Of a stretch of DNA of 49,418 nucleotides, positions 15,180 to 29,506 are shown piece by piece. Within the stretch, counting starts at the first letter, position 1, and each line of letters starts with the position of its first letter. The stretch is from Acutalibacteraceae bacterium (GTDB lineage Bacteria; Bacillota; Clostridia; Oscillospirales; Acutalibacteraceae): assembly GCA_045541655.1 (NCBI GenBank), contig JAZQJN010000012.1, positions 1-49,418 of the forward strand, written 5' to 3'. The notes beneath the pieces were generated by a model. The model made no database searches and had not been told where the DNA came from. It saw nothing but the letters and a program-made list of their open reading frames with translations. A program made the translations under genes and the position numbers.

Positions 15180-15263
15180 GCGGGCGTGGCGGAATTGGCA
15201 GACGCGCTAGACTTAGGATCTAGTGTCAACGACGTGGGGGTTCAAGTCCCTTCGCCCGCACCA
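15180..15263 (+). tRNA. tRNA-Leu (anticodon UAG), CCA encoded
   Basis: Acceptor stem GCGGGCG/CGCCCGC, anticodon loop CTTAGGA, a long variable arm and T-loop TTCAAGT. Confidence 0.92.
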
Positions 15264-15464: not shown

Positions 15465-16067
15465 ATGAAAACTATCTTTGGATTTATTAAAAACGAGGAT
15501 GGAATAAGCGTAAATAAAGAAGCAGTTAATACAATTAATTTGATTGCTGAACTATATTTACAAGGATTTAGCTTAGGTTCAATTTCAAACACACTTGAGG
15601 ATAAAGGATATTTATCTCCGTCAGGCAAAACAAAATGGTCACGGTCAGTTATTGACTCTATACTATCTAATTCTTCTTATGTTCCGTGTATACTATCAGA
15701 AGAATTATTTTATGAGATACAGTTTGTGAAAGAAAAGCGCAGTAATAAAAATAGCGATAATTCTCGCAAGGCCACAAGGTATAATTCAAAAAATGTACTT
15801 AGCGGTCTTTTGTTTTGTGAAGAATGTGGCGCCTCTTACCGTAGAATAACTAAATCTACTGGTGAAGTTGTCTGGAGATGTGCAAACCGTGTGGAAAGCG
15901 GCAAACGTTTTTGCCATAGTGCGCCAACAATATCAGAAGAAATAATCAAATCGCAAATAATAAGGGCATGTTCCCTTATTATTTGGGATGAGTGCATTGT
16001 TCGGGAAAAAATTGAGCGAATTAATGTTACATCAAATCATAATTTAATCATATTTAATCACACTTAA
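15465..16067 (+). pseudogene. Large serine recombinase remnant (recombinase and zinc-ribbon domains only)
   Basis: LIAELYLQGFSLGSISNTLEDKGY and FCEECGASYRRITKSTGEVVWRC are typical of the middle and zinc-ribbon region. The ~150-aa N-terminal resolvase catalytic domain is absent. Confidence 0.7.
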
Positions 16068-16131: not shown

Positions 16132-16770
16132 ATGCGCATTATGAAAGAGTTTGATTCTCGATTAGAAGCTGTATGGACTTATGTAATATCAAAAGAAAAA
16201 CTATTTAAGCGTTTGGTTGAACAAGGAATTTTTGATAAGGAGACAACAGATGAAATACTTGAACATATGTATTCTCAATTTAATTTAGATTATAATCCAA
16301 ACTTTGTTCCTTCTCCAGTGGGAGAAGTTATGTACGCAGCGAAGGTAGATGTGCCGCGAGCTTGTGTCTCTCTTACAGACATCGCAAGAGCAAAAACCGA
16401 TAAGAATCCCGGATATTTAATACAATCGTGGTTACGTAGCGATAATACTATTGAATTTTTACGTGCTTGGGAATTAAAAAACAATAAAAAATTTGATAAT
16501 GATGAATGCGAAAAACTTTTATCAGAAATAAAGCAAAATGGTTCCACACTAACTCCTAAGTTGTGGTCTGAGCGAACTAATGCAACAGGTCTTATCTCCA
16601 CTAAAGGTAAAGGCGGCGGAACAAAAGCAGATACGGATATCGCTTTAGCTTTTCGAGCGTGGTTAAATCCGGATATTATGTTAGAAATGATATCCCGTTT
16701 TAAATACTATGAAATTCAGTTTAATAAAAAAGATCCAACTATCATTTGTCAAGAGAACATCAATCCGTAA
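16132..16770 (+). CDS. KilA-N domain-containing protein
   Basis: SLTDIARAK...IQSWLRSDNTIEFLRAWELKNN...TLTPKLWSERTNATGLISTKGKGGGT...DIALAFRAWLNP matches the KilA-N pattern. Confidence 0.7.
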   Translation: MRIMKEFDSRLEAVWTYVISKEKLFKRLVEQGIFDKETTDEILEHMYSQFNLDYNPNFVPSPVGEVMYAAKVDVPRACVSLTDIARAKTDKNPGYLIQSWLRSDNTIEFLRAWELKNNKKFDNDECEKLLSEIKQNGSTLTPKLWSERTNATGLISTKGKGGGTKADTDIALAFRAWLNPDIMLEMISRFKYYEIQFNKKDPTIICQENINP

Positions 16771-16779
16771 ATATGATAT

Positions 16780-17661
16780 ATGTATTATAAAAAAACTCAA
16801 AAGATAGAAGCATCATTAACAGTTATATCTTTGTACGGTAAAATCAAATGTGGTATGTGTGGAGAAATTTGTTGCGCAACTTGTAACAATAATGGTGAAA
16901 TTTTTTGGTATTGCTCATGTTGCATAAAAGATGGATTGTTAGTCAATCAAAAGGAATTAGCAATAAAGTTGCAGGATGTTACAAATATAACAGATATATA
17001 TTTTGATTTTCTATTTCTAATAGTGGAGAAGGTAATCATTTACAAAGATAATATTGACATTGTTTTAAAGAAAATAGATTCTAGTCAAAAAGCTCTATTG
17101 TTACATCTACAAGATCATTGGTTAGTATATCACAGTATGAGAGGTGACCTAATAGCCAAAGAAACTATTTATAATCAATATTCTTCCTTTTTGGCTGCTA
17201 AACTTAGATATTTAAAAAGTCGTTCAAATCTTAATGATATGGACATTGAAGATTTATCTCAAACTATTTGGTTGCGAGTCTTTTCAAGACTTTCTAACTA
17301 TGATAGTAAATATAGACTCTTCACTTGGATTAATCAAATCCTAAGGTCTGAATTTTATCTAGCAATAAAAAGAAAACAAAAATATTTACTTTCAAACGAT
17401 TGTGTAAGATTAACACTTGATACTAACCAATACAACAAAAGAAATGATATTGATAATTGGATGGACAACGATTATGTAAGTGCGCTACTGTCAGTGCTAT
17501 CTGCGCGAGAACGTGAGATTGTTGTGCGATACTTGTTAAATAACGAAACACAAGTATCTATCTCAAAAGAACTTAAAATTTCGACTACTCGAACTAGTCA
17601 GATTTATTTACAAGCATTAAATAAAATTAGAGCTGAATTTGATGCTGAAACTAAAAAATGA
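16780..17661 (+). CDS. Sigma-70 (ECF-like) family sigma factor with an N-terminal extension derived from a serine-recombinase zinc ribbon
   Basis: Region 2 (EDLSQTIWLRVF...FTWINQILRSEF) and region 4 HTH (LSAREREIVVRYLL...ISKELKISTTRTSQIYLQALNKIR) are present. N-terminal CGMCG-x10-GEIFWYC parallels CEECG-x11-GEVVWRC of the upstream remnant. There is no clear RBS at 16780. Confidence 0.65.
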   Translation: MYYKKTQKIEASLTVISLYGKIKCGMCGEICCATCNNNGEIFWYCSCCIKDGLLVNQKELAIKLQDVTNITDIYFDFLFLIVEKVIIYKDNIDIVLKKIDSSQKALLLHLQDHWLVYHSMRGDLIAKETIYNQYSSFLAAKLRYLKSRSNLNDMDIEDLSQTIWLRVFSRLSNYDSKYRLFTWINQILRSEFYLAIKRKQKYLLSNDCVRLTLDTNQYNKRNDIDNWMDNDYVSALLSVLSAREREIVVRYLLNNETQVSISKELKISTTRTSQIYLQALNKIRAEFDAETKK

Positions 17662-17691: not shown

Positions 17692-18942
17692 ATGAAAAAA
17701 GATTATATAAATAAATTAATTAAAGCATACGATTCATTACAATACTTTTATTTTTCTAATGAAAAGGATGAATTGGATTTTGAAGATAAGCCCTATATAA
17801 ATATGTTAGAGCTTCTTTATTCGAAATTTTACGAATATGAATTTTTCAGTGAGGATCTTTTGGAATATGCAGTAATTAGTTATTTAAAACAACAGGATAA
17901 GCCACAAGAAACGAATGAAAACACCATTAAAGAATTCATAGAATATATTATAAATATTTTTGATATCAATAAGCAAAAACATTTCTTGATATTCCCACTT
18001 CAAGGTTCAGGTATTAATTGTGATGTTTCTTTTTCAAATATCCACATATTAAAAGAAAAGGGCGAAGAAGTGTTACTTGATCAAATATCCGAAATCACCG
18101 ATATGAGTTATTATGATGTAAGGGATTTTTTTAGACATACTCAAAATAGTAGATCAAAAGATTTTTTAAAATCTAATATAATGATTATTGAAATCGAAAA
18201 CCAAACATATAATGTTAAACATTCTGCATATCTAATGGCGCAATCAGCGATAAATATCTTAAAGCTTATTCATTCAGCATATGAAATGGAATCAAGTATA
18301 TTTAGAAAATCTGAATTACACGTTAAAAGGAATAGCCATGTTGCGATAATTTCAAAAGATTCCTGGCGATGTGGTCACGGTTTTAATTGGAATGCAAACT
18401 TACAGTGCAAATTAGATATTGATTTTATTGCTGAAAAAAAGCATCAAGAAACTTTTTCAAAAATGTTGAACTTGCTTTTTTCAAAAAGCAATGATCAACT
18501 TAATAGATTATTTATTAATGCATTTGGACTTTTTGAAAAAGCTACAATTCAGAGAACAGAGTTTTGTGAATATGAGATTTCGCTTTTATTATATCTAACA
18601 GCACTTGAGTCTCTATTTACAGAAGGCAAAAATGAGAAAAGACTAAGAATAGCAGCTATTGTTCCTAGAGTGTTGTATGATGATGGAGCTAAAATAACAG
18701 AACTTGCTGAAAAACTAGAAATTCTTTATATGCAACGTAATAATTTTTTACATGCGGGGGAGTTTTTTCATTATAAGCGGATTGATATAACGCTTGAACA
18801 ATTGGAGCAAACAGTTGCCAAAATAATCTTAAAAATTTTGACAATTGATGATATTATCTACGCAAGGGAAAATGAAAGCAACTTGAAGGCCTGGAACAAA
18901 TATACAGATAACATATTTAAAAATATTATTTTAGGTAAATAA
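17692..18942 (+). CDS. HEPN-domain protein (Rx4H), N-terminal ~300 aa unknown
   Basis: C-terminal LTALESLF...LEILYMQRNNFLHAGEF contains R349-N-N-F-L-H354 (DNA 18736-18753). RBS AAAGGAA is present. Confidence 0.6.
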   Translation: MKKDYINKLIKAYDSLQYFYFSNEKDELDFEDKPYINMLELLYSKFYEYEFFSEDLLEYAVISYLKQQDKPQETNENTIKEFIEYIINIFDINKQKHFLIFPLQGSGINCDVSFSNIHILKEKGEEVLLDQISEITDMSYYDVRDFFRHTQNSRSKDFLKSNIMIIEIENQTYNVKHSAYLMAQSAINILKLIHSAYEMESSIFRKSELHVKRNSHVAIISKDSWRCGHGFNWNANLQCKLDIDFIAEKKHQETFSKMLNLLFSKSNDQLNRLFINAFGLFEKATIQRTEFCEYEISLLLYLTALESLFTEGKNEKRLRIAAIVPRVLYDDGAKITELAEKLEILYMQRNNFLHAGEFFHYKRIDITLEQLEQTVAKIILKILTIDDIIYARENESNLKAWNKYTDNIFKNIILGK

Positions 18943-19000: not shown

Positions 19001-19018
19001 CTTATCAATATTGATAAG
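19001..19018. promoter_or_regulatory. Perfect 18-bp palindrome, candidate operator
   Basis: CTTATCAATATTGATAAG lies about 70 bp upstream of the -35 of the rSAM operon promoter. Confidence 0.45.
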
Positions 19019-19090
19019 ATATTTTCATAAGAAAAACTAACATCACATATTACTTTTATAATTTTCAAAACACATGTCAATACCTTTGCA

Positions 19091-19119
19091 TTGACATTAT
19101 TTTGGCTAGCATGTATAAT
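19091..19119 (+). promoter_or_regulatory. Consensus sigma-A promoter of the rSAM-SDR-2TM operon
   Basis: TTGACA, exactly 17 bp, TATAAT, about 37 bp upstream of the ATG at 19156 (RBS GTGAGGTG). Confidence 0.7.
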
Positions 19120-19155
19120 TATAATATAAGTTTATTTAATATGTGAGGTGAATAT

Positions 19156-20277
19156 ATGCCACATGCAAATAAACAAATGGCTTCGTTCTTTCTGACGTCC
19201 AAATGTAATTTGCGCTGTATATATTGTTACAACCAAGAGGAACGTATAAATCTAGTTGAACAGACATTGCCTATTGAAATTGCAAAAGCTGGTGTTGACT
19301 ATTTTTTCAGAACAAGTCAAAGTCGGCATATTAGATTTTATGGACCAGGAGAGCCGACTCAAGCTTTCATAATAATGAAAGAAATAGTTGAATACGCTAA
19401 AGAACAAGGTGGGAAAACTGTTACTACCGAATTACAGACTAATGGTTGCTTTGGAGAAAACGTCTGTTCTTGGATTAGTAACAATATTGATATAGTATGG
19501 GTGTCATTTGATGGCGAACCAGAAATTCAGAATAAAAATAGACCGTGTGCTAATGGGAAGCCGTCAGCTCCAATTATTGAAAAAAATGTTAAATGGTTGC
19601 TTAAAAACAAATCTGATCACAATATAATGGTGGGGGCACGTGTTACCATAACAAATGAAAATGTACAACGACAGCGTCAAATTATTGATTATTTTTCAAG
19701 TATTGGTATTAAACATATTTGGACCGATCCGATTTTCCCTACTGTAGGTAATATTCCTGTTTGCAATGATTATGAAAAACTAAGTCAATACAATTTTGAT
19801 ATGGATTTGTATGCAGATACATACATTGATGCCTTTTTTTATGCAAAGGAGAAAAACGTTTTTTATGGTAGTTTTCTCACATGCAATTTTGACGGTACAT
19901 GCAACAAGCATTGCCGTGCATGTACCCCAGTTCCACATTTTACAACTGATGGATATATTTCGGCTTGTGATCTAGTAACATTTGGTAAAACACCAAAACA
20001 TATGGATTGTTTTGTGTATGGCAAATGGGATGATACTAAAAAAACTTTTATAATAGATGAAAACAAGGTTAACGCTTTACGCCATAGAACAATAAATAAC
20101 ATGCCACACTGTGCAAAATGTGAGGTTAGAGAACATTGCGGGGGTTATTGTTTGGGGGAAGTGCAAAATGAGACTGGTACGTTATTGGGACAAAAGATAA
20201 ACACCTGTAAAGCAATACGAAAAATAGCACAGAAAATTGGATACCCTGAAAAACCGTATCCATATTTTCATCCATAA
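19156..20277 (+). CDS. Radical SAM enzyme with a C-terminal SPASM domain
   Basis: CNLRCIYC (CX3CX2C) lies at aa 17-24. The C-terminal CAKCEVREHCGGYC (CX2CX5CX3C) plus upstream CNKHCRAC cysteines form a SPASM-type auxiliary cluster signature. Confidence 0.85.
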   Translation: MPHANKQMASFFLTSKCNLRCIYCYNQEERINLVEQTLPIEIAKAGVDYFFRTSQSRHIRFYGPGEPTQAFIIMKEIVEYAKEQGGKTVTTELQTNGCFGENVCSWISNNIDIVWVSFDGEPEIQNKNRPCANGKPSAPIIEKNVKWLLKNKSDHNIMVGARVTITNENVQRQRQIIDYFSSIGIKHIWTDPIFPTVGNIPVCNDYEKLSQYNFDMDLYADTYIDAFFYAKEKNVFYGSFLTCNFDGTCNKHCRACTPVPHFTTDGYISACDLVTFGKTPKHMDCFVYGKWDDTKKTFIIDENKVNALRHRTINNMPHCAKCEVREHCGGYCLGEVQNETGTLLGQKINTCKAIRKIAQKIGYPEKPYPYFHP

Positions 20278-20298
20278 AAATACTTAAGGAGGCAATTT

Positions 20299-21045
20299 AT
20301 GAAAGTTGTTATTGTAGGGGCCGCAAAACCTGGTTACGCGGAATCAATTACGAGGAGATTTATTCGTCAAGGATATAGCGTTATTGGAACATATGACGAA
20401 GAGTATACTGATAATGCAATAAAAATGCAAAATGAGTTCACAGAAGATGTTTTGGTTCTTCGAAAGGTCGATTTGGCAAAGCGTGAAGAGCTATCTTCTT
20501 TTGTTAAATCAGTTCAAGGTAAAATTGATGGATTAATCTTCGCTCAATTTTTCTTTCATATGGAAGACCCAGATGATTTTGATCATATTATGTGGGACAA
20601 AAGTCTTGCAATCAATTTGACAGCTCCAAATTATCTTGTTCACGAATTAAAAGTGCAAATGAATCCAGGAAGTTCGATAGTTATTATAACAAGTACGGAA
20701 GCTTATAGGGGTTCATATGGTGCTTCTGCTTATGCTGCTACAAAGGCTGCGATACATAACCTTGTTCGCACCTTAGCTAATAATTTGGGAAAATATAATA
20801 TCCGCGTTAATGCATTACCAGCAGGATGGATCGGTGGCGAAATGGATACAGATGAAATATTCAATAAATCTAGATCGCTTACTCCATTAGGACGGTTAGG
20901 AACTGACGAGGAAATTGCAAATGTAGTTTATTTTCTATTTTCTAAAGAGTCGAGTTTCATAAATGGCACGACAATTGTTGCTGATGGTGGATACTTAGGC
21001 TCAGATCCTTTGTCAAAATATGAGTTTGAAGATAGTCGTAATTAA
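20299..21045 (+). CDS. Divergent short-chain dehydrogenase/reductase
   Basis: YAATKAA (YxxxK) with an upstream Ser (ITSTEA). The atypical Gly motif VIVGAAKPGYAESI resembles the FabI/pteridine-reductase style. RBS AAGGAGG is present. Confidence 0.8.
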   Translation: MKVVIVGAAKPGYAESITRRFIRQGYSVIGTYDEEYTDNAIKMQNEFTEDVLVLRKVDLAKREELSSFVKSVQGKIDGLIFAQFFFHMEDPDDFDHIMWDKSLAINLTAPNYLVHELKVQMNPGSSIVIITSTEAYRGSYGASAYAATKAAIHNLVRTLANNLGKYNIRVNALPAGWIGGEMDTDEIFNKSRSLTPLGRLGTDEEIANVVYFLFSKESSFINGTTIVADGGYLGSDPLSKYEFEDSRN

Positions 21046-21074
21046 GAAAAAATCGGAAAAGAGAGACGAAATAT

Positions 21075-22100
21075 ATGCGTAAGAAATGGTCGTTTTGGGA
21101 TATAATAATTCTAATGCTTGAAATTTTATCGCCTATTATATCTATTGTAATAACCTGTTTTATTCCAGCGGTCCAGGAACTTTCAGCCGATAGCAGATTA
21201 GCAATTATTGGGACAGGAATTGCTATACCTGTAGTACTAATACAAATTTCTATTACGCAAGGTCAAAACAAGACAGAGAGTGATAACGAAAAGAATAGAA
21301 ATCAGATTATAGAAATTTCTGAAAAAATAAATCATATTAGCCCTGTTTTAGAACAAGTATTTTTATCTGGCAATTCACGTGTACAACGTTTTGCATATCG
21401 CCGCTTTGAAGAAGTTTGTAAAACTATTCATACAGCTGTAAATAATAATAATTCTGGGAATTTACGGCCTAATGAATACTATGAAGAATTATTGCATCTG
21501 TCAGATCTAATTCTTAGGGATAAAGACAAAAACAAAAAGAAATTTCGTGGTGAAATATGGGCTATGACTGGATTTGCCGAGGATGAATGGATTGCCGATG
21601 AAGGATATGAGAATTTGTGGACAGATAAGCTAAAGGAAATGGTAGAAATAAATGCGATAAAAACACGTCGCTTATGTTTATTACCAGATTCATTATACAA
21701 CACGATAACTATGCCTGAATTTTCAGCACCACAAGAAAGTAATCATCCTTTTTGGGGATTTTTAAAATTATTGAATGATTACTATGGTAAAACGTTTAAT
21801 AATTCTAATGTTGAACATTATATTATTAAAGAAAACGATAATCCTAAATTAAAAGAGATTAGGGGTTTTTTTGCGATAAAATTAACTAATGGTGATTTAC
21901 ATATTTTATATGGGGAAACTGTGGATTCGAATGGAGCTTTAACAGCAAAAGTTTTGTTTGATCTTCAAGAAATTCAGGAAGTTCGTACGTTGTTTGAGAG
22001 ATATGCAAAATCTAATTATCGCATTGAAAATATTATACCGAAAATTTCTGATTCGAATGGATTTATTAAGTATCTAGAACAGCACAACATTAAAATATGA
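21075..22100 (+). CDS. 2-TM membrane protein with a ~270-aa cytoplasmic domain of unknown function
   Basis: Two N-terminal hydrophobic helices (aa ~8-30 and ~42-60) are followed by a charged linker and a globular region with no motif I recognise. Confidence 0.65.
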   Translation: MRKKWSFWDIIILMLEILSPIISIVITCFIPAVQELSADSRLAIIGTGIAIPVVLIQISITQGQNKTESDNEKNRNQIIEISEKINHISPVLEQVFLSGNSRVQRFAYRRFEEVCKTIHTAVNNNNSGNLRPNEYYEELLHLSDLILRDKDKNKKKFRGEIWAMTGFAEDEWIADEGYENLWTDKLKEMVEINAIKTRRLCLLPDSLYNTITMPEFSAPQESNHPFWGFLKLLNDYYGKTFNNSNVEHYIIKENDNPKLKEIRGFFAIKLTNGDLHILYGETVDSNGALTAKVLFDLQEIQEVRTLFERYAKSNYRIENIIPKISDSNGFIKYLEQHNIKI

Positions 22101-22345
22101 AGTTAGATTAAAAACACTATTGAACTCCAAGTATTTATAGGTTGGACATCAGTAGTGTTTTTTCTTTTTACCTCTGTTTTCATGCAGTTTTTCATCTTTT
22201 TAAATTGTTATTTTGAATTGGCTCAAAAAACAAAAAATCCGAAATCGATAAATAAAATTTTAAAATTAAATTATTCATCAAAAAATCTGACTACTATTAT
22301 AATAGCCAGATTTTTTGTTAAAAAAAAGACGCATAGCACACAGTC

Positions 22346-22430: not shown

Positions 22431-22898
22431 GTGCAAAATAATTCGTATCTTAATTTTAGAGAGAATTTAGAGTTGTTATTAAAGGGTAAATCGTATTCTG
22501 AATTAGCTTTGTATTTGGGTGTGCCTTCAAGCACACTTAAAAGTTGGATCAATGGTAGCAGGTGCCCAACGCTAAGAAATATTGATAAACTTGCTAATAG
22601 GATAGGATGTTATTCTTCTGATTTATTAAATTCAAAGGTTTGTATTATTAACAAAAAAGTACATTCAAATGATTCTCACATTTCTTTTGTTAAAAATTTG
22701 AATATTATGTTTTTGAAAAATCAATGCTTTTCGACACCTCAAAAACTTGCTTTATTAAACAATGTTATAACTGATTTTGCATTACAATCTTATTTAAGAA
22801 AACAAGATTATAAGTTGCCGACATTATCCAAATTAGATGTTATAGCAGATGCGCTTGGTATATCTACATATACTTTATTATTGGAGGAAACAAAATGA
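22431..22898 (+). CDS. Tandem-HTH XRE-family regulator (controller-protein-like)
   Basis: GTG start after GAGGTGA. HTH 1 is YSELALYLGVPSSTLKSWINGSRCPTLRNIDKLA. A second HTH-like segment is LPTLSKLDVIADALGISTYTLL. The stop overlaps the next start (ATGA). Confidence 0.7.
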   Translation: MQNNSYLNFRENLELLLKGKSYSELALYLGVPSSTLKSWINGSRCPTLRNIDKLANRIGCYSSDLLNSKVCIINKKVHSNDSHISFVKNLNIMFLKNQCFSTPQKLALLNNVITDFALQSYLRKQDYKLPTLSKLDVIADALGISTYTLLLEETK

Positions 22899-25303
22899 AA
22901 AAAGAGATTACACGTGAAAATAAAGAAAAAATACAGAAGTTGTTAGCGGCTATAGATGGAGTAGAAAATAGTGTTCCTTTCTTACTTAAAACAGCATTTA
23001 ATTTCAAGGGGAGAAAGTCGCCAATCATTGCACAGAAAGTTATAGAAGCCATAACAGAAGAAACTGATGCTATATTTGACCCATTTATGGGTTCAGCTTC
23101 GTTTGTAATTGCAGCAGCAAAAGCAAACAGAAAAATTGTAGCCACAGAAATAGATAATTACACATATTCCGCAGTATATGCTCTGTTAGCTAAAGTAAAT
23201 ACTGAGAAGTTAAATACAATATTCAAAAACATAGAAGCATCGGTTAAATCCTCTGTTATGGAATTGTACGAAACTTCCTGTTGCGGAGTTAAAAATTATA
23301 TAGAAAAATTATATTTTGACCCACAAGACAATGAGTTTTACTATCCTCGTCCAAACAGAGAGTTTTCTGACGGTAAAAACATAAAATTAATTTCGGCTTG
23401 TCCTATATGTGGAAAAAAAGACAAAGCGTTTGAAGGGTTTGATGAAGAAAAAATCAACTCTATTTCGGAAGAGGATGTTATAGATTTCCCTAAAGATACT
23501 TATATAGAAAATAGCCGAATTAATATAACTAGGTCTACGGGTGCAAATCGTTATGATAGAATATTTACAAAAAGAAATCAAAAGGCTTTGCTATTAATAC
23601 AAAGGGCAATATTAGAGCAAAGTGCTTCAATAGAACGGGATGTCATTGAACAGGCGCTAGTTTCCGCCCTGTCACTAGCAAGAATTTCAATGTACGGCTC
23701 AAGCACCGATATATTATATCATGTGGTTCCGTTCGGTGCTCAAGAAATGAATGTTTGGACACTGTTTGAGTCTAAATTAAATAGCTTTATTAATTTTAAG
23801 AAAGAGTATTCAGATATTTTATTGGCTGATTCTGATGATAACAAAAAGTATTATATACATAACGAATCGTATCAAGATTTTTGTTCCGAAAAACTGATGA
23901 AGGATTCGTTTGATTTGATATACACTGATTTTCCGTATACAGATCAAGTTCCTTATTTAGAAAGGAATCAATTATATAGGGTTTGGTTAAACAAATTTTA
24001 TAATAATGATATTTCTTTTGAATTGACTTCTAAAATGCTCAATGAAGAAATTGTTCAAACGGATTCTCCTCAGAGGGAAAACAAAAAAGGTGTTGATCAA
24101 TATTATTTAGATATAGATAAAATGTTTAAAACATTTTATAAGGTGTTAAAAACAAATTCGCTTGCTATTTTTACTGTAAAGTTGGGAAAAGCAAAATATT
24201 TCACAACACTTATGGAAATTATTAATCTTGCGAGAAAAAACGGTTTTGAATATGCCTTTAGAGTCGGCATAGACAAAAATGATCCTACTATACGTAAACA
24301 AGCGGCGTATAAAAACACGCTTTCTAATGAAATGATAATAGGATTTCAAAAATTAGATGAGGAGAATCGTTACTGGTACATAGGCAACAAGAACTACGAG
24401 TTCGAAACAGTTAAGTTAGTTTATAATGCGATAGAAAAAGATGAAATAACCATTAGCCATGCTGTTGATTTGGTGCGAAAAACTATAATAAATAAAGAAT
24501 CATATTTTGTATCTGACGAGGAAATTTTGACGATAAAGGATATTATTTTTAACAACTTTGTTATTGATACAAATACATCTATTGTTAGAAAGGATTACAA
24601 CAAACTATATTTGGATATTGAAGATAATTCTGATTTATTTACAAAATTTTATAATTTTATTCCCGTTATTATCAAGCGCCTTTTAGATGAGAACGGAAAG
24701 TTCGTTCTTGATGACCTTTATTTTGAAATAGCAAACACGTTATGTAACGGCGACCCTAAAACAGTAAATCAATTTCTTGAAGACAGAAGTCACGCCTCTG
24801 ATATAGACATATTGGTAAAAAATTATTGTGAAACTGATGGTCGAGTTTACACCAAGAAAAACTATACTGAAGCAGTTAAAGAAGGTGCCGTAGATATTTC
24901 AACATTGGAAGGATATGAATTTGAACATCTAATTAAAAAGTTACTAGAAAAAGACGGCTTCTTTAATGTAGTTAATACTGGCGGTGCAGGAGATTTGGGA
25001 GTTGATTTGTTGGCGCATAAATATGATGAGAATAAAATAGATAAATTATATTTATTCCAATGTAAACGCTGGGCTGCAAATGTTGGTAGTGAACCAATGC
25101 AACGTTTAGTAGCAGAAAAATTACGCCGTGGCGCCGATGTTGCTATATGCATTACTACATCAGATTTCACAAAGGATGGACAATTGATTTCTAATGAACA
25201 GGATGTCGGAATGTGGAATGGTGAGTATGTGACTCGAAAATTAAATGAGCATTTCCCGAATCAGTATTACAACGGTGCTTTGGAATGGAGCATAGGAGAT
25301 TAG
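22895..25303 (+). CDS. Fusion protein: permuted N6/N4-type DNA methyltransferase-like module with degenerate motifs, a middle domain, and a C-terminal Mrr-type PD-(D/E)xK nuclease
   Basis: FDPFMGSASF (motif I-like) lies at aa ~60 and LIYTDFPY (motif IV-like) at aa ~345. The C-terminal FEHLIKKLL...GAGDLGVDLLA...LYLFQCKRW matches the Mrr_cat pattern (D...QxK). Confidence 0.7.
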   Translation: MKKEITRENKEKIQKLLAAIDGVENSVPFLLKTAFNFKGRKSPIIAQKVIEAITEETDAIFDPFMGSASFVIAAAKANRKIVATEIDNYTYSAVYALLAKVNTEKLNTIFKNIEASVKSSVMELYETSCCGVKNYIEKLYFDPQDNEFYYPRPNREFSDGKNIKLISACPICGKKDKAFEGFDEEKINSISEEDVIDFPKDTYIENSRINITRSTGANRYDRIFTKRNQKALLLIQRAILEQSASIERDVIEQALVSALSLARISMYGSSTDILYHVVPFGAQEMNVWTLFESKLNSFINFKKEYSDILLADSDDNKKYYIHNESYQDFCSEKLMKDSFDLIYTDFPYTDQVPYLERNQLYRVWLNKFYNNDISFELTSKMLNEEIVQTDSPQRENKKGVDQYYLDIDKMFKTFYKVLKTNSLAIFTVKLGKAKYFTTLMEIINLARKNGFEYAFRVGIDKNDPTIRKQAAYKNTLSNEMIIGFQKLDEENRYWYIGNKNYEFETVKLVYNAIEKDEITISHAVDLVRKTIINKESYFVSDEEILTIKDIIFNNFVIDTNTSIVRKDYNKLYLDIEDNSDLFTKFYNFIPVIIKRLLDENGKFVLDDLYFEIANTLCNGDPKTVNQFLEDRSHASDIDILVKNYCETDGRVYTKKNYTEAVKEGAVDISTLEGYEFEHLIKKLLEKDGFFNVVNTGGAGDLGVDLLAHKYDENKIDKLYLFQCKRWAANVGSEPMQRLVAEKLRRGADVAICITTSDFTKDGQLISNEQDVGMWNGEYVTRKLNEHFPNQYYNGALEWSIGD

Positions 25304-25326
25304 ATATTTAAGGAGGTATAAATATT

Positions 25327-26325
25327 ATGGCTTGTAAAAGAATGAATGCCATTTTTTGTGAGCTTAAAACCATCCAAGAAGAATTTGGAAAGTTAACTGG
25401 GGAATACAATATATATTCAAGCAGCAAAATATATGAAATTATAATAGCAAATATGTTGGAACATCATATTTTAGCTGGTGCACATGGTGCGGATGCATAT
25501 GATGATTCTAAAAATCATTATGAATATAAGCATTATAAAGAATCAAGCTCTAACCACACTTGGACGTTTAATGATTATACCGATAAAACACTATCTGAAT
25601 TAAAATCTCGAACAGTTATATTTGCGCATATAAATGATATAAATTCAACAAATCCTTTGGAATATGTGGATTGGTATTACAAAGTTGATGGTAAGGTTAT
25701 AGCGAGATATATTTCTAATTGGTCTCAAAATTCTGGCAATAAACGAAAAATGATAAATATAAGTGTTTCACAATTAGAAAGTGATTGTAATGCTGAAAAA
25801 ATTTGTGTAAACTCAGATAATCTTGAAGGGCGATACTCTAATTATATTATTAAGATTTTTGAATGTATTGATTATCTTGAAAAATTCACAAAAACCACAA
25901 ATTTATTGACAAGCAATAAATTATGGGAATTGTTTTTAGCAAATGGATTAAACCATAAAATAAACTCCAAACAAGGCGGTATGGGAGGAAAACATGATGC
26001 TCAAGATTCCCAAAATCGAAAATATGAGTATAAAATATCTCAAAGCACATTATGGACCTTTGAGGATGTGAGTGATGACGTTATTGCTAATATGAGATTA
26101 TTAGATGGTATATATTTATCTCAAATTGATAAAAGGAAATTTGAAATTAAAAAAATCCTATTGTTAGATACCAATAAAACGATGAATTTTATTAAAAAGA
26201 AAAGAGATATAATGATTGCCGAGAAAAATAAGAGTAATATATTGATTCGCCGTTTGAATGTTTCTATCTCGTTGAATGAAGTTAAAAATGAAGGATTAAT
26301 AATAAAAAGTTTTCCTACAATATAA
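25327..26325 (+). CDS. Tandem-duplicated PvuII-like restriction endonuclease (single-chain pseudo-dimer)
   Basis: Two copies of K(I/L)(Y/W)E(I/L)..AN.L...G..DA.D-x5-YEYK...WTF.D occur at aa ~33-85 and ~198-245. The spacing is identical to my recollection of the PvuII catalytic segment GNDAVDNAGQEYELK. Confidence 0.65.
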   Translation: MACKRMNAIFCELKTIQEEFGKLTGEYNIYSSSKIYEIIIANMLEHHILAGAHGADAYDDSKNHYEYKHYKESSSNHTWTFNDYTDKTLSELKSRTVIFAHINDINSTNPLEYVDWYYKVDGKVIARYISNWSQNSGNKRKMINISVSQLESDCNAEKICVNSDNLEGRYSNYIIKIFECIDYLEKFTKTTNLLTSNKLWELFLANGLNHKINSKQGGMGGKHDAQDSQNRKYEYKISQSTLWTFEDVSDDVIANMRLLDGIYLSQIDKRKFEIKKILLLDTNKTMNFIKKKRDIMIAEKNKSNILIRRLNVSISLNEVKNEGLIIKSFPTI

Positions 26326-26328
26326 CAC

Positions 26329-26365
26329 AAAAGGAATCGTTCTGATTTTTGAACGATTCCTTTTT
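26329..26365. terminator. Bidirectional terminator between convergent R-M modules
   Basis: AAAGGAATCGTTC-TGATTTTT-GAACGATTCCTTT. Confidence 0.8.
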
Positions 26366-26368
26366 ATG

Positions 26369-27958
26369 CTACAATATCCATTTGGCAGTATCAGTGTCCC
26401 ACTTTAAATGTTTTTCAAAAATGTCAACTAATGATTTATACTTTAGGGAGAGGGTTTTTAGCCAACCGTTTTGTATTAAAATTTCCATAAGACCTTTGTC
26501 ATAAAGTTCTGGCGTTGACAACGAGCCGCTTTGTTTCACTAAAAAACGGGCTTGGCGGACAATATTCTTTTCTATTTCCTCCACTTGTTCGGCTCCCTCT
26601 TGTCCATAAATGGGAAATTGCGTTTTTTTGAAGAATAAAATACAATCGCCATTTAGTGATTTTTTTGGACTAATAATATTTTTTAGTGTATTAGACTTTG
26701 CAATATGCGCTTGTCCTAAATATTGTAATTGATAATTTGATAGACTACCGATTAATTTGTTCCAAACTTCTAAGCTTGAATCGTGGAAATACATACAAAA
26801 ATAGCCATCCATTTTTAGTTTATCAGAGCATATTTTAAAAACATCATCTAATAACTTAAAATATTCATCTTCACCTTTGTTGCGAGATGGTGCAGACGAA
26901 ACTACGATTTCATCATCTATATCAAAATTTAAATCCAAAAAAGGTTTATACAATTGCATGTATTCCGAGTATGCAACTTGACCCAAATAAGGGGGATCTG
27001 TAATGATAAGTTGTATAGATTCATTAGCAATATCCAAATTATCTATATGTTGGCTGCCTTTATGTAACAATTTATATTCTAGTTTCTCTTTATAATTTTC
27101 TTCTAAAAAGGCGATTGTACTAGAAAACTTTTTCACCTTTTTTTCTAACAAATCAATAACATTTTTTTCTACACAATCTGTTTTAGGAATCCAAAGCGGC
27201 CATTGAGAATTAGAATGTTTATCAGTGATCTTGCATAAATGTATAACCGACATCAATATGTATTTAAATAAATCATTATAGCAAGATAAATTGTTAATAA
27301 TACCAACTACCTCATCCAATACAGTAAAATTTCTTTTGGTGAAGATTTGGCTTATATGTTGATTTTCATATACAGCTAATTTACTGTTTGCTATGAGTAG
27401 TGTATCATTTATATTTTTAATAATATGATTGACGTTAATTGATTGAATATCGTTGATATCTGGGGTTTTGGTGCATTTAGAAGAACATGTGCATCTATAA
27501 TTAATGCTTTTAATTGCTATTTCTGCATCTCGTTGCGGTTTATCGAAAACAACAGATGTTATTACGCCTTTTGAACCGCAATTATCACAATCAGTATAAT
27601 AATACTTTTGTAATAATCTAATTTTGGAAAGAAATTCGTGTGAGACTTTTTTGTATATTTGTGCATCATAATCTTTTAACAAAGTTTTTACTATAAAAAG
27701 TGGTGCTTCATTTATTTCGCAACCAATTGCTTTCCTTTTTTTTCCCTTAGAAATAGACTGAAGCAGGGTAACACCCGAACCTAAAAATGGATCGAAAACA
27801 GTGTCGCCCTCATTACTAAATGCGTCAATTAATATATCACAAATGTTAAATGGCTTTTGTGACCAATAAATATGCGAGTCATACAAAGGGTTTTTGTTGG
27901 AGGCAGATGTACTATATATTTCTTTTTTAACTTCTTCTATTGATTTCATAATAGTCAC
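26369..27958 (-). CDS. DNA methyltransferase (N6/N4 type, motif I before motif IV, Cys-rich insert)
   Basis: VFDPFLGSGVT lies at aa ~55 and LIITDPPY at aa ~320. A Cys cluster (CDNCGS...YRCTCSSKC) lies between them. Confidence 0.8.
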   Translation of the reverse strand: MTIMKSIEEVKKEIYSTSASNKNPLYDSHIYWSQKPFNICDILIDAFSNEGDTVFDPFLGSGVTLLQSISKGKKRKAIGCEINEAPLFIVKTLLKDYDAQIYKKVSHEFLSKIRLLQKYYYTDCDNCGSKGVITSVVFDKPQRDAEIAIKSINYRCTCSSKCTKTPDINDIQSINVNHIIKNINDTLLIANSKLAVYENQHISQIFTKRNFTVLDEVVGIINNLSCYNDLFKYILMSVIHLCKITDKHSNSQWPLWIPKTDCVEKNVIDLLEKKVKKFSSTIAFLEENYKEKLEYKLLHKGSQHIDNLDIANESIQLIITDPPYLGQVAYSEYMQLYKPFLDLNFDIDDEIVVSSAPSRNKGEDEYFKLLDDVFKICSDKLKMDGYFCMYFHDSSLEVWNKLIGSLSNYQLQYLGQAHIAKSNTLKNIISPKKSLNGDCILFFKKTQFPIYGQEGAEQVEEIEKNIVRQARFLVKQSGSLSTPELYDKGLMEILIQNGWLKTLSLKYKSLVDIFEKHLKWDTDTAKWIL

Positions 27959-29190
27959 CGCCCATTACACAATATTAAATATTCAATTACTTTTTTCGGT
28001 GCTTTATTTCTGTTGTTTGAATGAGAATAATTTAATGTTGCGATCTCAACATTTGTTGCGCCAAATTCTTTAGAACAAGAATCTTTAATATCATCAATAG
28101 ACATCACATACCTGTCGGTTTTTTGTTTTGTGACATCTGCCGGATATGCAAAACTAATAGCTAGGTTTTTATTATATGCATTAGCAAAACAAACTAAATT
28201 ATTGAATGTAGTTAAACACGTACTTTTGGCACTTAATTTTGATTGATATCTATTTTCTGTATATAGACCCTTGGTATATTTTCCGGAGTTTTGTGTTGGA
28301 GCGGGATAATCGTATTTCGCAACTATATTTAATAAATGATAATATCTTGAATATTGCATATCCGTGTAAGGGGGGTCAGCGTAGATAAAGCTAACGTTAT
28401 TCTTTATATCGTCTTGCTTTATTAAATCTTCAAAATTCATATTATAAGTTTTGTTGCTTTTTGTAGTCTTAATAAATTCATCCAAAAAGAAACTCTGAAA
28501 CTTTTCTTTAAAAATATTGTAAATGGACTTATTGCGGGTTAAAAACAATTTAAATACATTGTCTTTTAAATTTAGAGGTTGTGCCATATGTCCGTCTTTA
28601 GAAAAAACACATTCTTTCATCGCAAAAAACAAAGATGTAAGCAACGGAAAGAATAAAGACGTTGATTTGAATTGTTCAATGGCATATCTTAAAGAATCAA
28701 TCTCTATTGATTGATTTAAACCAAAATAGGAACTAGAATAATATGTAGTAAAAAGTTCGAAATTATTATGGTTTTTGATAAAAGGTATTTTATGATTCCA
28801 AACGGTTGGAAATTCTTCATAAAACTCGATTAGAGCGGAATAATTATCTAAATCTGAAAGCAGTGTCTTTTCTTGTAATTGTTGTTCTATGATACTTTCT
28901 GAAAATTTGCCCATATTAGAAAAGAAATAATCATCTATTTGCATTAATATTTTTTGGGGATCTTCTTTATATGTTCCAAGCAAAGCGGTTGAAATAATAT
29001 ATGAATATAATTCACTATCATTAGCATAGATGGTATAATCTCTTTTATAACTGTATCCCACGCTGCATGTGCCGGCAAAAATATCCAATAACGTGGAGTT
29101 GGGTTCAATATAAGAAGCAGCATTTTGATGAATAAACTCAAGTAAGTTTTTTTTACTACCCTGATAATTCAAAACAGAAAAATGATCCAT
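27955..29190 (-). CDS. D12-class (Dam-like) N6-adenine DNA methyltransferase
   Basis: NYQGSKK, LLDIFAGTCSVG and FIYADPPY motifs. RBS GGAGGGG precedes the ATG at 29190. There is a 4-bp overlap with the downstream MTase gene. Confidence 0.8.
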   Translation of the reverse strand: MDHFSVLNYQGSKKNLLEFIHQNAASYIEPNSTLLDIFAGTCSVGYSYKRDYTIYANDSELYSYIISTALLGTYKEDPQKILMQIDDYFFSNMGKFSESIIEQQLQEKTLLSDLDNYSALIEFYEEFPTVWNHKIPFIKNHNNFELFTTYYSSSYFGLNQSIEIDSLRYAIEQFKSTSLFFPLLTSLFFAMKECVFSKDGHMAQPLNLKDNVFKLFLTRNKSIYNIFKEKFQSFFLDEFIKTTKSNKTYNMNFEDLIKQDDIKNNVSFIYADPPYTDMQYSRYYHLLNIVAKYDYPAPTQNSGKYTKGLYTENRYQSKLSAKSTCLTTFNNLVCFANAYNKNLAISFAYPADVTKQKTDRYVMSIDDIKDSCSKEFGATNVEIATLNYSHSNNRNKAPKKVIEYLILCNGR

Positions 29191-29506
29191 ATATTCCCCT
29201 CCACACAATATTGTAATGATTATAACATATTAATTTAAAATAATCAACTACATATAAAAAATTATAGCTAAAAAAATTGCATCGGAAAAATTCGGTGTGT
29301 CTAAATTCGCCTAAAATGATTGATTGAAACACATAAAACATTTACCGTATAAGCAAACAGATATTCCTATTATTGATGTCTTGCAATATAGTTAAAAAAT
29401 TTGTGTACTAGCATTTAAACTATATGGTTGTTTTATATGTAGGGGTACGAACACATAGGTCAAAAATTCAAAAGGGTTAGAATTTGTGCTCCCCTACCAA
29501 AGCATT

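Follow-up and report, generated by a model that had tools for sequence, protein, structure and literature searches.

A mobile three-gene cassette of a radical SAM/SPASM enzyme, a short-chain dehydrogenase/reductase and a two-helix membrane protein, with a possible role in inter-genomic conflict

The 49,418-nucleotide stretch of Acutalibacteraceae DNA analyzed here (contig JAZQJN010000012.1, hereafter "the window") contains at positions 19091–22173 a single self-contained operon, made up of a promoter, three close-set genes and a strong terminator, that encodes a radical S-adenosylmethionine (SAM) enzyme with a SPASM domain (gene 1), a short-chain dehydrogenase/reductase or SDR (gene 2) and a membrane protein that bears two transmembrane (TM) helices at its N-terminus (gene 3). 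This cassette is an autonomous, horizontally mobile and patchily distributed three-gene operon, and it is one branch of a large modular family in which the radical SAM enzyme is constant, the SDR usually present and the other partners interchangeable. As to its function, the reading that we tentatively prefer is that of a mobile conflict or defense unit, in which the radical SAM enzyme and the SDR would modify a conserved small metabolite by redox chemistry at the membrane while the gene 3 product, through a domain resembling an inactive phospholipase D (PLD), would be its receptor or effector. The elements of the operon and of its upstream region are the following:

19001..19018, no strand assigned: perfect 18-bp palindrome, CTTATCAATATTGATAAG, candidate operator located 72 bp 5′ of the −35 hexamer and occurring once in the window
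19074..19097, no strand assigned: inverted repeat with arms of 8+8, ATGTCAAT-N8-ATTGACAT, candidate operator overlapping the −35 hexamer, with 1 match in the window against 0.04 expected by chance
19091..19119, plus strand: sigma-70-type promoter TTGACA-17-TATAAT, a 12/12 match located 36 bp 5′ of the ATG of gene 1
19156..20277, plus strand: gene 1, radical SAM/SPASM enzyme of 373 aa, from its open reading frame (ORF) and domain matches
20299..21045, plus strand: gene 2, SDR of 248 aa, from its ORF and the Pfam family adh_short_C2
21075..22100, plus strand: gene 3, membrane protein of 341 aa, from its ORF, two N-terminal TM helices and an AlphaFold2 (AF2) model
22110..22173, plus strand: intrinsic terminator, a hairpin with 21-bp arms followed by the U-run UUUUUUCUUUUU (−22 kcal/mol, z −4.4)

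The operon can be considered self-contained because it possesses its own promoter, closely spaced genes, separated by 21 bp (genes 1 and 2) and 29 bp (genes 2 and 3), and its own terminator. The original prediction, made from the sequence before any database search, had described a separately promoted set of three tightly spaced genes driven by a consensus promoter preceded by a perfect palindrome; all of these elements were found again, and to them is added the terminator, absent from that description, whose hairpin begins 10 nt past the last stop codon of gene 3. The promoter is the sole perfect match in the 49 kb of the window, the expectation from shuffled sequences being 0.01, and it is also the only informative site of this type, since weaker promoter-like sites in the region are no more common than in the shuffles (24 found vs 21 expected). 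Neither the palindrome nor the inverted repeat has further copies in the window. An alignment of the regions upstream of 10 loci of the family revealed no shared operator, just a −10-like box in common, so that the 18-bp palindrome would be specific to this locus, and a search for structured RNAs against Rfam between 14.5 and 23.5 kb returned a tRNA alone, with no riboswitch or leader. A hint that members of the family are subject to repressor control comes from other loci: at one of them (L100:7767-9152) the radical SAM enzyme carries a fused N-terminal helix-turn-helix (HTH) domain of the XRE type, and at three others (L011, L012 and L024) a 114-aa HTH protein is encoded directly upstream of the cassette.

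The order radical SAM–SDR–gene 3 is kept, according to an automatic count, in at least 40 of the 43 loci that could be judged, and two of the three exceptions are called with an SDR in another annotation, having probably been missed through overlapping ORF calls. The triad is still intact where gene 3 is only 26% identical, and it is found in Firmicutes, Bacteroidetes, Chloroflexi, Planctomycetes and an archaeal genome bin. It is nevertheless rare, insofar as a scan of species genomes yielded only 11 loci among 185,579 genomes (Lachnospiraceae, Acetatifactor, Ruminococcus, Huintestinicola, Anaerolineales, Bacteroidetes, Phycisphaeraceae, Polaromonas and a Nitrososphaerota bin). The copies from the archaeal bin, Bacteroidetes and Anaerolineales (Chloroflexi) share 77–83% identity in the SDR (77–79% in the comparison with the other two proteins across phyla), 51–69% in the radical SAM enzyme and 46–60% in gene 3; the SDR and radical SAM values across phyla indicate recent horizontal transfer together with a very strong constraint on both enzymes. 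The flanks of the loci are unrelated to one another, and no neighboring gene of the window is present at any other locus. No match to gene 3 was found among 50,697 phage records, and in a viral-contig collection just one of 80 radical SAM matches is a true family member (L104, IMGVR_UViG_3300007043_000156). The gene set downstream of the latter is common to the human-gut loci L031–L039 and its last gene resembles a conjugative coupling protein; this contig is probably a misclassified conjugative element and not a virus. A phage origin of the cassette, which had been considered, was rejected on the basis of these two results.

Gene 1 displays the cluster-binding motif C17x3C21x2C24 and exceeds the gathering score of PF04055 (Radical_SAM), 29.5, with 32.2 bits. 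It also has the full seven-cysteine SPASM motif (C256x9Gx4C271, C319x2C322x5C328x3C332 and C351) plus C253, all invariant in 22 homologs, so that the two cysteine signatures previously read in the sequence are borne out and two auxiliary 4Fe-4S clusters can be expected. The protein has no RiPP recognition element (RRE; RiPP, ribosomally synthesized and post-translationally modified peptide) and opens directly with the radical SAM core. Its named relatives are PapB, QhpD, the nif11, HxsB and SCIFF maturases, DynA and anSME, all with NCBIfam scores far under the cutoffs: the best match, PapB, attains 116.3 bits against a cutoff of 340, and the anSME family 73 bits against 349. The closest solved structures are those of CteB and anSME, and no sulfatase partner gene was found in any locus inspected. 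Similarity to viperin is confined to the N-terminal part, amounting to 39.1 bits (cutoff 180) over residues 9–128 with the NCBIfam model NF038283 and to 42 bits over residues 10–180 with pVip of PADLOC, in agreement with the earlier judgment that the enzyme is not viperin-like. Homologs from different phyla are 46–75% identical and the mean column identity of their alignment is 66%.

Gene 2 belongs to adh_short_C2 (PF13561; 153 bits, 1e-44) and reaches no specific SDR subfamily. The catalytic Y145xxxK149 is present, whereas the cofactor-binding motif TGxxxGxG is replaced by VGAAKPGYA, a form kept in the cassettes of the triad type; the atypical glycine motif noticed at the outset is therefore real.

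Gene 3 has no family match in Pfam, NCBIfam or PADLOC, and its profile produced noise only against the sequences of the PDB; 117 homologs were found in a set of 5.8 billion proteins and 79 clusters among 1.84 billion representative proteins. Its layout consists of two N-terminal TM helices (hydrophobic segments at approximately residues 8–29 and 41–60), a helical stalk and an alpha/beta domain comprising approximately residues 125–341. The N-terminus has a net charge of +2 and the loop between the helices of −2, so that an N-in/C-in topology with a cytoplasmic C-terminal domain is predicted. The AF2 models have a pLDDT of 85 for the whole protein, and a pLDDT of 89 with a pTM of 0.86 for residues 121–341. 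When the soluble domain was compared with known structures by Foldseek the top match was PssA, the phosphatidylserine synthase (E 2e-3, probability 0.98, TM-score 0.40), followed by the ligand-binding domain of TrmB, the pseudo-PLD of FAM83 and PLD3, all with TM-scores of ~0.4. The alignment of the family keeps a PLD-like strand pattern (GEIWAMT..., IKTRRLC..., GFFAIKL...G280-E-T) and is devoid of the catalytic HxK(x)4D(x)6G(S/T)xN, with no His/Lys pair at the aligned positions (FFAIKL...GET). On these models the assignment to the PLD-like fold is tentative, and the domain is probably a catalytically dead version of this fold with a ligand-binding function. Thus, of the earlier description the length of 341 aa and the two TM helices stand, and the soluble domain, then left unassigned, receives a provisional identity. 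Of note is the invariant Cys201, which sits in the sequence CLLPD (residues 201–205, window 21675–21689); 25 out of 30 homologs have CX3(D/E) at this point. This spacing matches that of the PapB ranthipeptide sites, and the residue is predicted to lie inside a buried beta-strand of the folded core. Four homologs (P0029, P0046, P0105 and P0112) have one or two added "ISPV(L/I)E" units in the stalk (alignment A1, columns ~130–165), which would therefore be longer in these proteins.

The radical SAM family is far larger than that of gene 3, with 787 matches in one search and at least 236 relatives in one metagenome scan. When the neighbors of these enzymes were clustered in 74 non-redundant loci, the following partners were found, the labels beginning with T_C denoting families of two-TM proteins:

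SDR: 50 of 74 loci
gene 3 family (T_C2): 24 of 74
SET domain: 18 of 74
GNAT: 15 of 74
T_C18, another two-TM protein: 13 of 74
T_C3b, another two-TM protein: 12 of 74
PAD_porph: 12 of 74
T_C4, another two-TM protein: 9 of 74
PAS plus coiled-coil protein, mostly accompanied by a small TM protein: 9 of 74
T_C42, another two-TM protein: 6 of 74
T_C28, another two-TM protein: 5 of 74
class I methyltransferase: 4 of 74
EamA exporter: 3 of 74
APH-like kinase: 1 of 74

In addition, an aminotransferase is encoded 3′ of the radical SAM gene at two loci, at one of which (L053) it is accompanied by an aldehyde dehydrogenase (ALDH), and a GNAT gene lies directly 3′ of gene 3 at six (L004, L015, L016, L045, L073 and L196). 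The PAD_porph protein clears the NCBIfam cutoff for agmatine deiminase (433 vs 381.8), the aminotransferase is nearest to pyridoxal-phosphate (PLP) enzymes acting on arginine derivatives and the ALDH is nearest to succinic-semialdehyde, betaine-aldehyde and aminobutyraldehyde dehydrogenases. The presence of agmatine deiminase, arginine-type PLP enzyme, ALDH and EamA exporter in these sister cassettes points to small molecules of the guanidino or amine type. The original prediction had taken the consistent placing of the triad in biosynthetic clusters with an identifiable substrate gene as an argument against a defense role; accessory enzymes of a small-molecule type do indeed occur in the relatives, whereas no substrate gene was identified.

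The two-TM partners number from one to four paralogs per operon, the radical SAM enzyme being single, and their domains occur also as fusions with SET or GNAT domains. Comparison of the profiles by hhalign joins T_C2 to T_C28 on the one hand and T_C4, T_C3b, T_C18 and T_C42 to one another on the other; a single superfamily embracing all of them was considered and rejected, since the two groups remain unlinked. One 541-aa protein (P0278) contains a two-TM anchor, a domain of the T_C18/T_C42 type and then a domain of the gene 3 type in tandem, and T_C4 and T_C3b are mostly an adjacent pair; these arrangements suggest a pairing of the two groups comparable to that between the halves of a PLD enzyme. 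The most elaborate arrangement is a ten-gene super-cassette adjoining a HipA toxin gene (L190:948-9031), with the order radical SAM, GNAT, two genes without Pfam match, two SDRs, gene 3 homolog, two more genes without Pfam match and GNAT. On a Clostridium perfringens plasmid (L184; NZ_CP102303, 64926-72686) a 38%-identical radical SAM enzyme is part of an MFS-SDR-AsnB-AMP-binding-rSAM-rSAM cluster (rSAM, radical SAM) that looks like an uncharacterized biosynthetic pathway.

Two loci, one of them in the aerobe Polaromonas (L018:1093-3662) and the other L192:1159-3688, have no radical SAM gene and encode instead, together with an SDR and a gene 3 homolog, a P4H-type 2-oxoglutarate (2OG)-Fe(II) oxygenase (2OG-FeII_Oxy_3). 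The two loci are independent; their oxygenases share 77% identity and their flanks are not alike. The exchange of an O2-sensitive radical SAM enzyme for an O2-dependent oxygenase is a familiar pattern between anaerobes and aerobes, and the oxygenase of these two loci looks like an aerobic replacement. The swap, in these two cases, suggests that the role of the radical SAM enzyme is an oxidative C-H functionalization and that the alcohol or carbonyl thus formed is then the substrate of the SDR.

The surroundings of the cassette at other loci are often rich in defense and mobile-element genes, as listed below:

L001–L003: TIR-NLR protein (2e-155 among the TIR-NLR matches) and TraG/MobL conjugation genes
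L007: Hachiman HamA
L004: PIN toxin
L005, L021, L022: recombinases and integrases (serine recombinases among mobile-element genes)
L071: SIR2+HerA
L192: CAP12-type TIR protein
L196: CTD9/MC5 conflict domains plus integrase

When the flanks of 47 representative loci were scanned with PADLOC (221 ORFs, each 200 aa or longer), further matches were to Avs2 (1e-182), PrrC, type I restriction-modification (R-M), PARIS-like AriA, PDC-S01/04/05/57 and MADS components. At L196:11748-13031 the cassette and its GNAT gene are immediately followed by a 54-aa ORF and the CTD9- and MC5-domain proteins, with the integrase next; the CTD9 and MC5 Pfam families derive from work on nucleoside triphosphate (NTP)-dependent conflict systems. 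As to the neighborhood census that had been proposed, the triad is conserved across phyla, and known defense genes recur in the flanks in a qualitative sense.

Given these neighborhoods, the most likely role of the cassette would be in inter-genomic conflict, directed against phages or mobile elements and exerted by making or altering a small metabolite. In the scheme that we tentatively prefer, the radical SAM enzyme would abstract an H atom and oxidize a conserved cellular substrate at a C-H or C-OH position, a step that in the relatives lacking this enzyme might be performed by the 2OG-Fe(II) oxygenase. The SDR would then reduce or oxidize the resulting carbonyl or alcohol, with a net deoxygenation, epimerization or keto/hydroxy tailoring as the outcome. 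Both reactions would occur at the cytoplasmic face of the membrane, where the HKD-less PLD-like domain of gene 3 would bind the substrate or product, probably phosphorylated or amine-bearing, and act as its receptor or effector; the use of a PLD-like fold for ligand binding in TrmB is in favor of a receptor role. That the substrate may be a universal one, rather than a co-evolving peptide, is suggested by the conservation of the radical SAM enzyme and the SDR, which far exceeds that of gene 3. The reaction order, the small-molecule nature of the substrate, the part assigned to gene 3 and the defense function itself are what we infer from these data.

Several considerations weigh against this scheme. 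The nearest named relatives of the radical SAM enzyme (PapB, QhpD, SCIFF, DynA and anSME) act without exception on peptides or proteins and not on metabolites. The coexistence of several two-TM paralogs with one radical SAM enzyme, as in the super-cassette described above, would fit substrates or subunits better than alternative effectors, and the exporters and the C. perfringens plasmid cluster resemble ordinary secondary metabolism. Furthermore, the Foldseek scores behind the PLD-like assignment are weak (E 2e-3, TM-score ~0.4), the recurrence of defense genes is a qualitative support obtained with no control set and from many short contigs, and several loci (L008; L005/L006) lie amid housekeeping genes.

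The alternative that survives best, though we regard it as somewhat unlikely, is an ordinary specialized metabolism, in which a compound of the guanidino, polyamine or amino-sugar type would be tailored to yield a secreted antimicrobial or signal, or else to be catabolized, the two-TM protein being a scaffold, a sensor or a self-protection device and the defense context being explained by shared mobile cargo. In its favor are the agmatine deiminase, the arginine-type aminotransferase with its ALDH, the GNAT, the class I methyltransferase, the APH-like kinase and the EamA exporter of the sister cassettes, the plasmid cluster of C. perfringens and, by its logic only, the pair of a radical SAM enzyme and a reductase of the SDR type constituted by AprD4/AprD3 in aminoglycoside deoxygenation. 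However, the version of the window has three genes only, with no exporter or further tailoring enzyme, the accessory sets vary widely around a constant core, XRE regulators are attached to some cassettes, either upstream or as a fusion, and defense genes recur in the flanks.

A narrower form of the conflict hypothesis may also be envisaged, namely that the cassette represents a new class of immunity against phages or mobile elements in which the radical SAM enzyme (or, in aerobes, the 2OG oxygenase) and a dedicated SDR turn a common metabolite, either a nucleotide or one of the guanidino/polyamine type, into a compound with an antiviral or alarm function. The membrane-anchored dead-PLD proteins would read this compound, the amine-modifying sets (agmatine deiminase, SET and GNAT) being swapped as variants; this proposal is an unlikely one.

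Doubtful to a slightly greater extent is the possibility that the cassette is devoted to protein maturation, the SPASM enzyme, helped by the SDR, modifying the co-encoded membrane protein(s), for instance by Cys/Ser oxidation or by formation of a Cys-Asp/Glu thioether as anSME, QhpD and PapB do, so that the modified two-TM protein would itself be the product. The top named relatives of the radical SAM enzyme are all peptide or protein maturases with no strict requirement for an RRE, a separate precursor ORF is absent, one to four two-TM paralogs accompany a single enzyme, some of these proteins are fused to the protein-modifying domains SET or GNAT, and the invariant Cys201 has the appropriate context. 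On the other hand, the position predicted for this cysteine, within a beta-strand of the folded core, speaks against its being a target, conservation is much higher in the enzyme than in the protein that it would modify, the two groups of two-TM proteins have no detectable common motif that one enzyme could recognize, and agmatine deiminase, ALDH and exporters are not protein-directed.

It is very improbable that the radical SAM enzyme and the SDR serve to inactivate an incoming antibiotic or toxin. Such a resistance function would fit the GNAT, APH-like and methyltransferase companions found in sister cassettes and the carriage on plasmids and integrative and conjugative elements (ICEs) in gut bacteria, but none of the named resistance families of NCBIfam is matched, the APH-like protein is nearest, and weakly, to homoserine kinase, many of the loci presumably come, to judge by their sample identifiers, from termite-gut or environmental metagenomes, and the membrane-protein partner is left unexplained. 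Finally, a classical RiPP cluster of the ranthipeptide or sactipeptide type, with a precursor that is remote or too small to be recognized, would account for PapB being the best NCBIfam match and for the complete SPASM motif, but is hardly credible any longer and already largely refuted by the distance of that match from its cutoff (116 vs 340), by the missing RRE domain, by the absence of a protease or transporter typical of these clusters, by the fact that the three genes move together and take no others with them and by the failure to find, from 900 bp upstream to 500 bp downstream of the cassette in 16 divergent loci, any conserved small ORF, a result that extends the earlier remark that no Cys-rich precursor ORF is encoded nearby.

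The preferred reading, a conflict unit acting through a small metabolite, can be compared with several known systems, the kin in kind of the cassette being the enzyme-plus-membrane-partner cassettes of mobile or defense islands. With pVip it would share the presence in defense islands of a radical SAM enzyme that alters a small metabolite, in addition to the weak match in the core domain, but gene 1 differs in its full SPASM domain and the two auxiliary clusters of the latter, in having no viperin C-terminal region and in its obligatory partners, an SDR and a membrane protein. PapB (ranthipeptides), QhpD and anSME are RRE-less radical SAM enzymes of the same length class with a seven-Cys SPASM domain and represent the best sequence matches; unlike them, gene 1 remains far under the cutoffs of these families and has no precursor peptide, QhpC-like or sulfatase partner, and it is much more conserved across phyla than RiPP maturases typically are. 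In the C3′ deoxygenation of aminoglycosides by AprD4/AprD3 a radical SAM step produces a carbonyl that is reduced by a dedicated SDR, the genes being located in large actinomycete biosynthetic clusters; genes 1 and 2 are likened to this pair by reaction logic only, and here a three-gene mobile cassette with a membrane protein is found instead. The TM effectors of CBASS and Pycsar have, like gene 3, N-terminal TM helices and a cytoplasmic domain, ligand-binding in their case and probably so in gene 3, and are encoded beside the enzyme that would make the ligand; the domain of gene 3 is, however, PLD-like and not SAVED, STING or cNMP-binding, no cyclase is present and several paralogs per operon are possible. 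The best fold matches of gene 3 are members of the PLD superfamily, both enzymes (PssA and cardiolipin synthase) and non-catalytic proteins (the TrmB C-terminal domain and FAM83), and the tandem protein P0278 has two such domains; cardiolipin synthase also has two N-terminal TM helices. Gene 3 differs from the PLD enzymes in having no HxK(x)4D, a single domain and weak fold scores.

PADLOC-DB v2.0.0 holds no match for the SDR or the two-TM protein and only the weak pVip matches for the radical SAM enzyme, the triad as a set has no name in Pfam or NCBIfam (June 2026 release), and no description of the gene set was found in the searchable full-text literature (radical SAM/SPASM/SDR, defense, SET, agmatine). 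The conflict-systems paper of Kaur et al. 2020 (PMC7159879) mentions other radical SAM/SPASM peptide systems, not the present set. The initial statement that no described defense system has this gene composition is upheld by PADLOC v2, the NCBIfam equivalogs and the searchable literature: the parts belong to ordinary superfamilies, whereas their combination, the modular family and the oxygenase swap appear to be undescribed.

If the cassette is a defense system, it would represent a second radical SAM chemistry in bacterial immunity after viperin, and unrelated to it, as well as a new type of membrane effector based on a pseudo-PLD domain, and it would tie immunity to guanidino/polyamine metabolism in strict gut anaerobes. 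If it is not, there is still a large cross-phylum and apparently undescribed family with a clear modular grammar and an apparent anaerobic/aerobic enzyme swap. In that case the three genes still offer enzymologists a tractable way into an unknown SPASM reaction.

In the window the cassette lies within an AT-rich stretch of ~15–33 kb (G+C 27–36% vs ~40–46% in most of the flanking sequence) that follows a tRNA-Leu (15180-15263) and includes an R-M-like locus, as originally described. Directly after the tRNA (15465-16067) is encoded a large serine recombinase that has lost its catalytic N-terminal domain and retains the Recombinase and Zn-ribbon domains, and because of this truncated gene beside the tRNA the island looks like a decayed integrative element; a search for direct repeats that could represent att sites at its borders gave nothing convincing. 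There follow, at 16132-17661, a KilA-N protein matching the PADLOC candidate PDC-S22 (1e-33) and then a sigma-70-like protein with a Cys-rich N-terminus. The gene immediately preceding the cassette (17692-18942) encodes a protein of 416 aa in which an RNNFLH motif (Rx4H, HEPN-like) can be read and which has no match in Pfam, NCBIfam, PADLOC or the PDB sequences; its earlier designation as a HEPN protein, with this motif as its sole basis, is not confirmed. On the other side, the R-M-like block (22431-29208) comprises an HTH protein, an 802-aa fusion of a methyltransferase (MTase) with Mrr, a protein of unknown family (332 aa) and a convergent pair of N6/N4 MTases, and the far end of the AT-rich stretch (29649-32411) is occupied by the gene of a 920-aa thermolysin-like (M4) peptidase.

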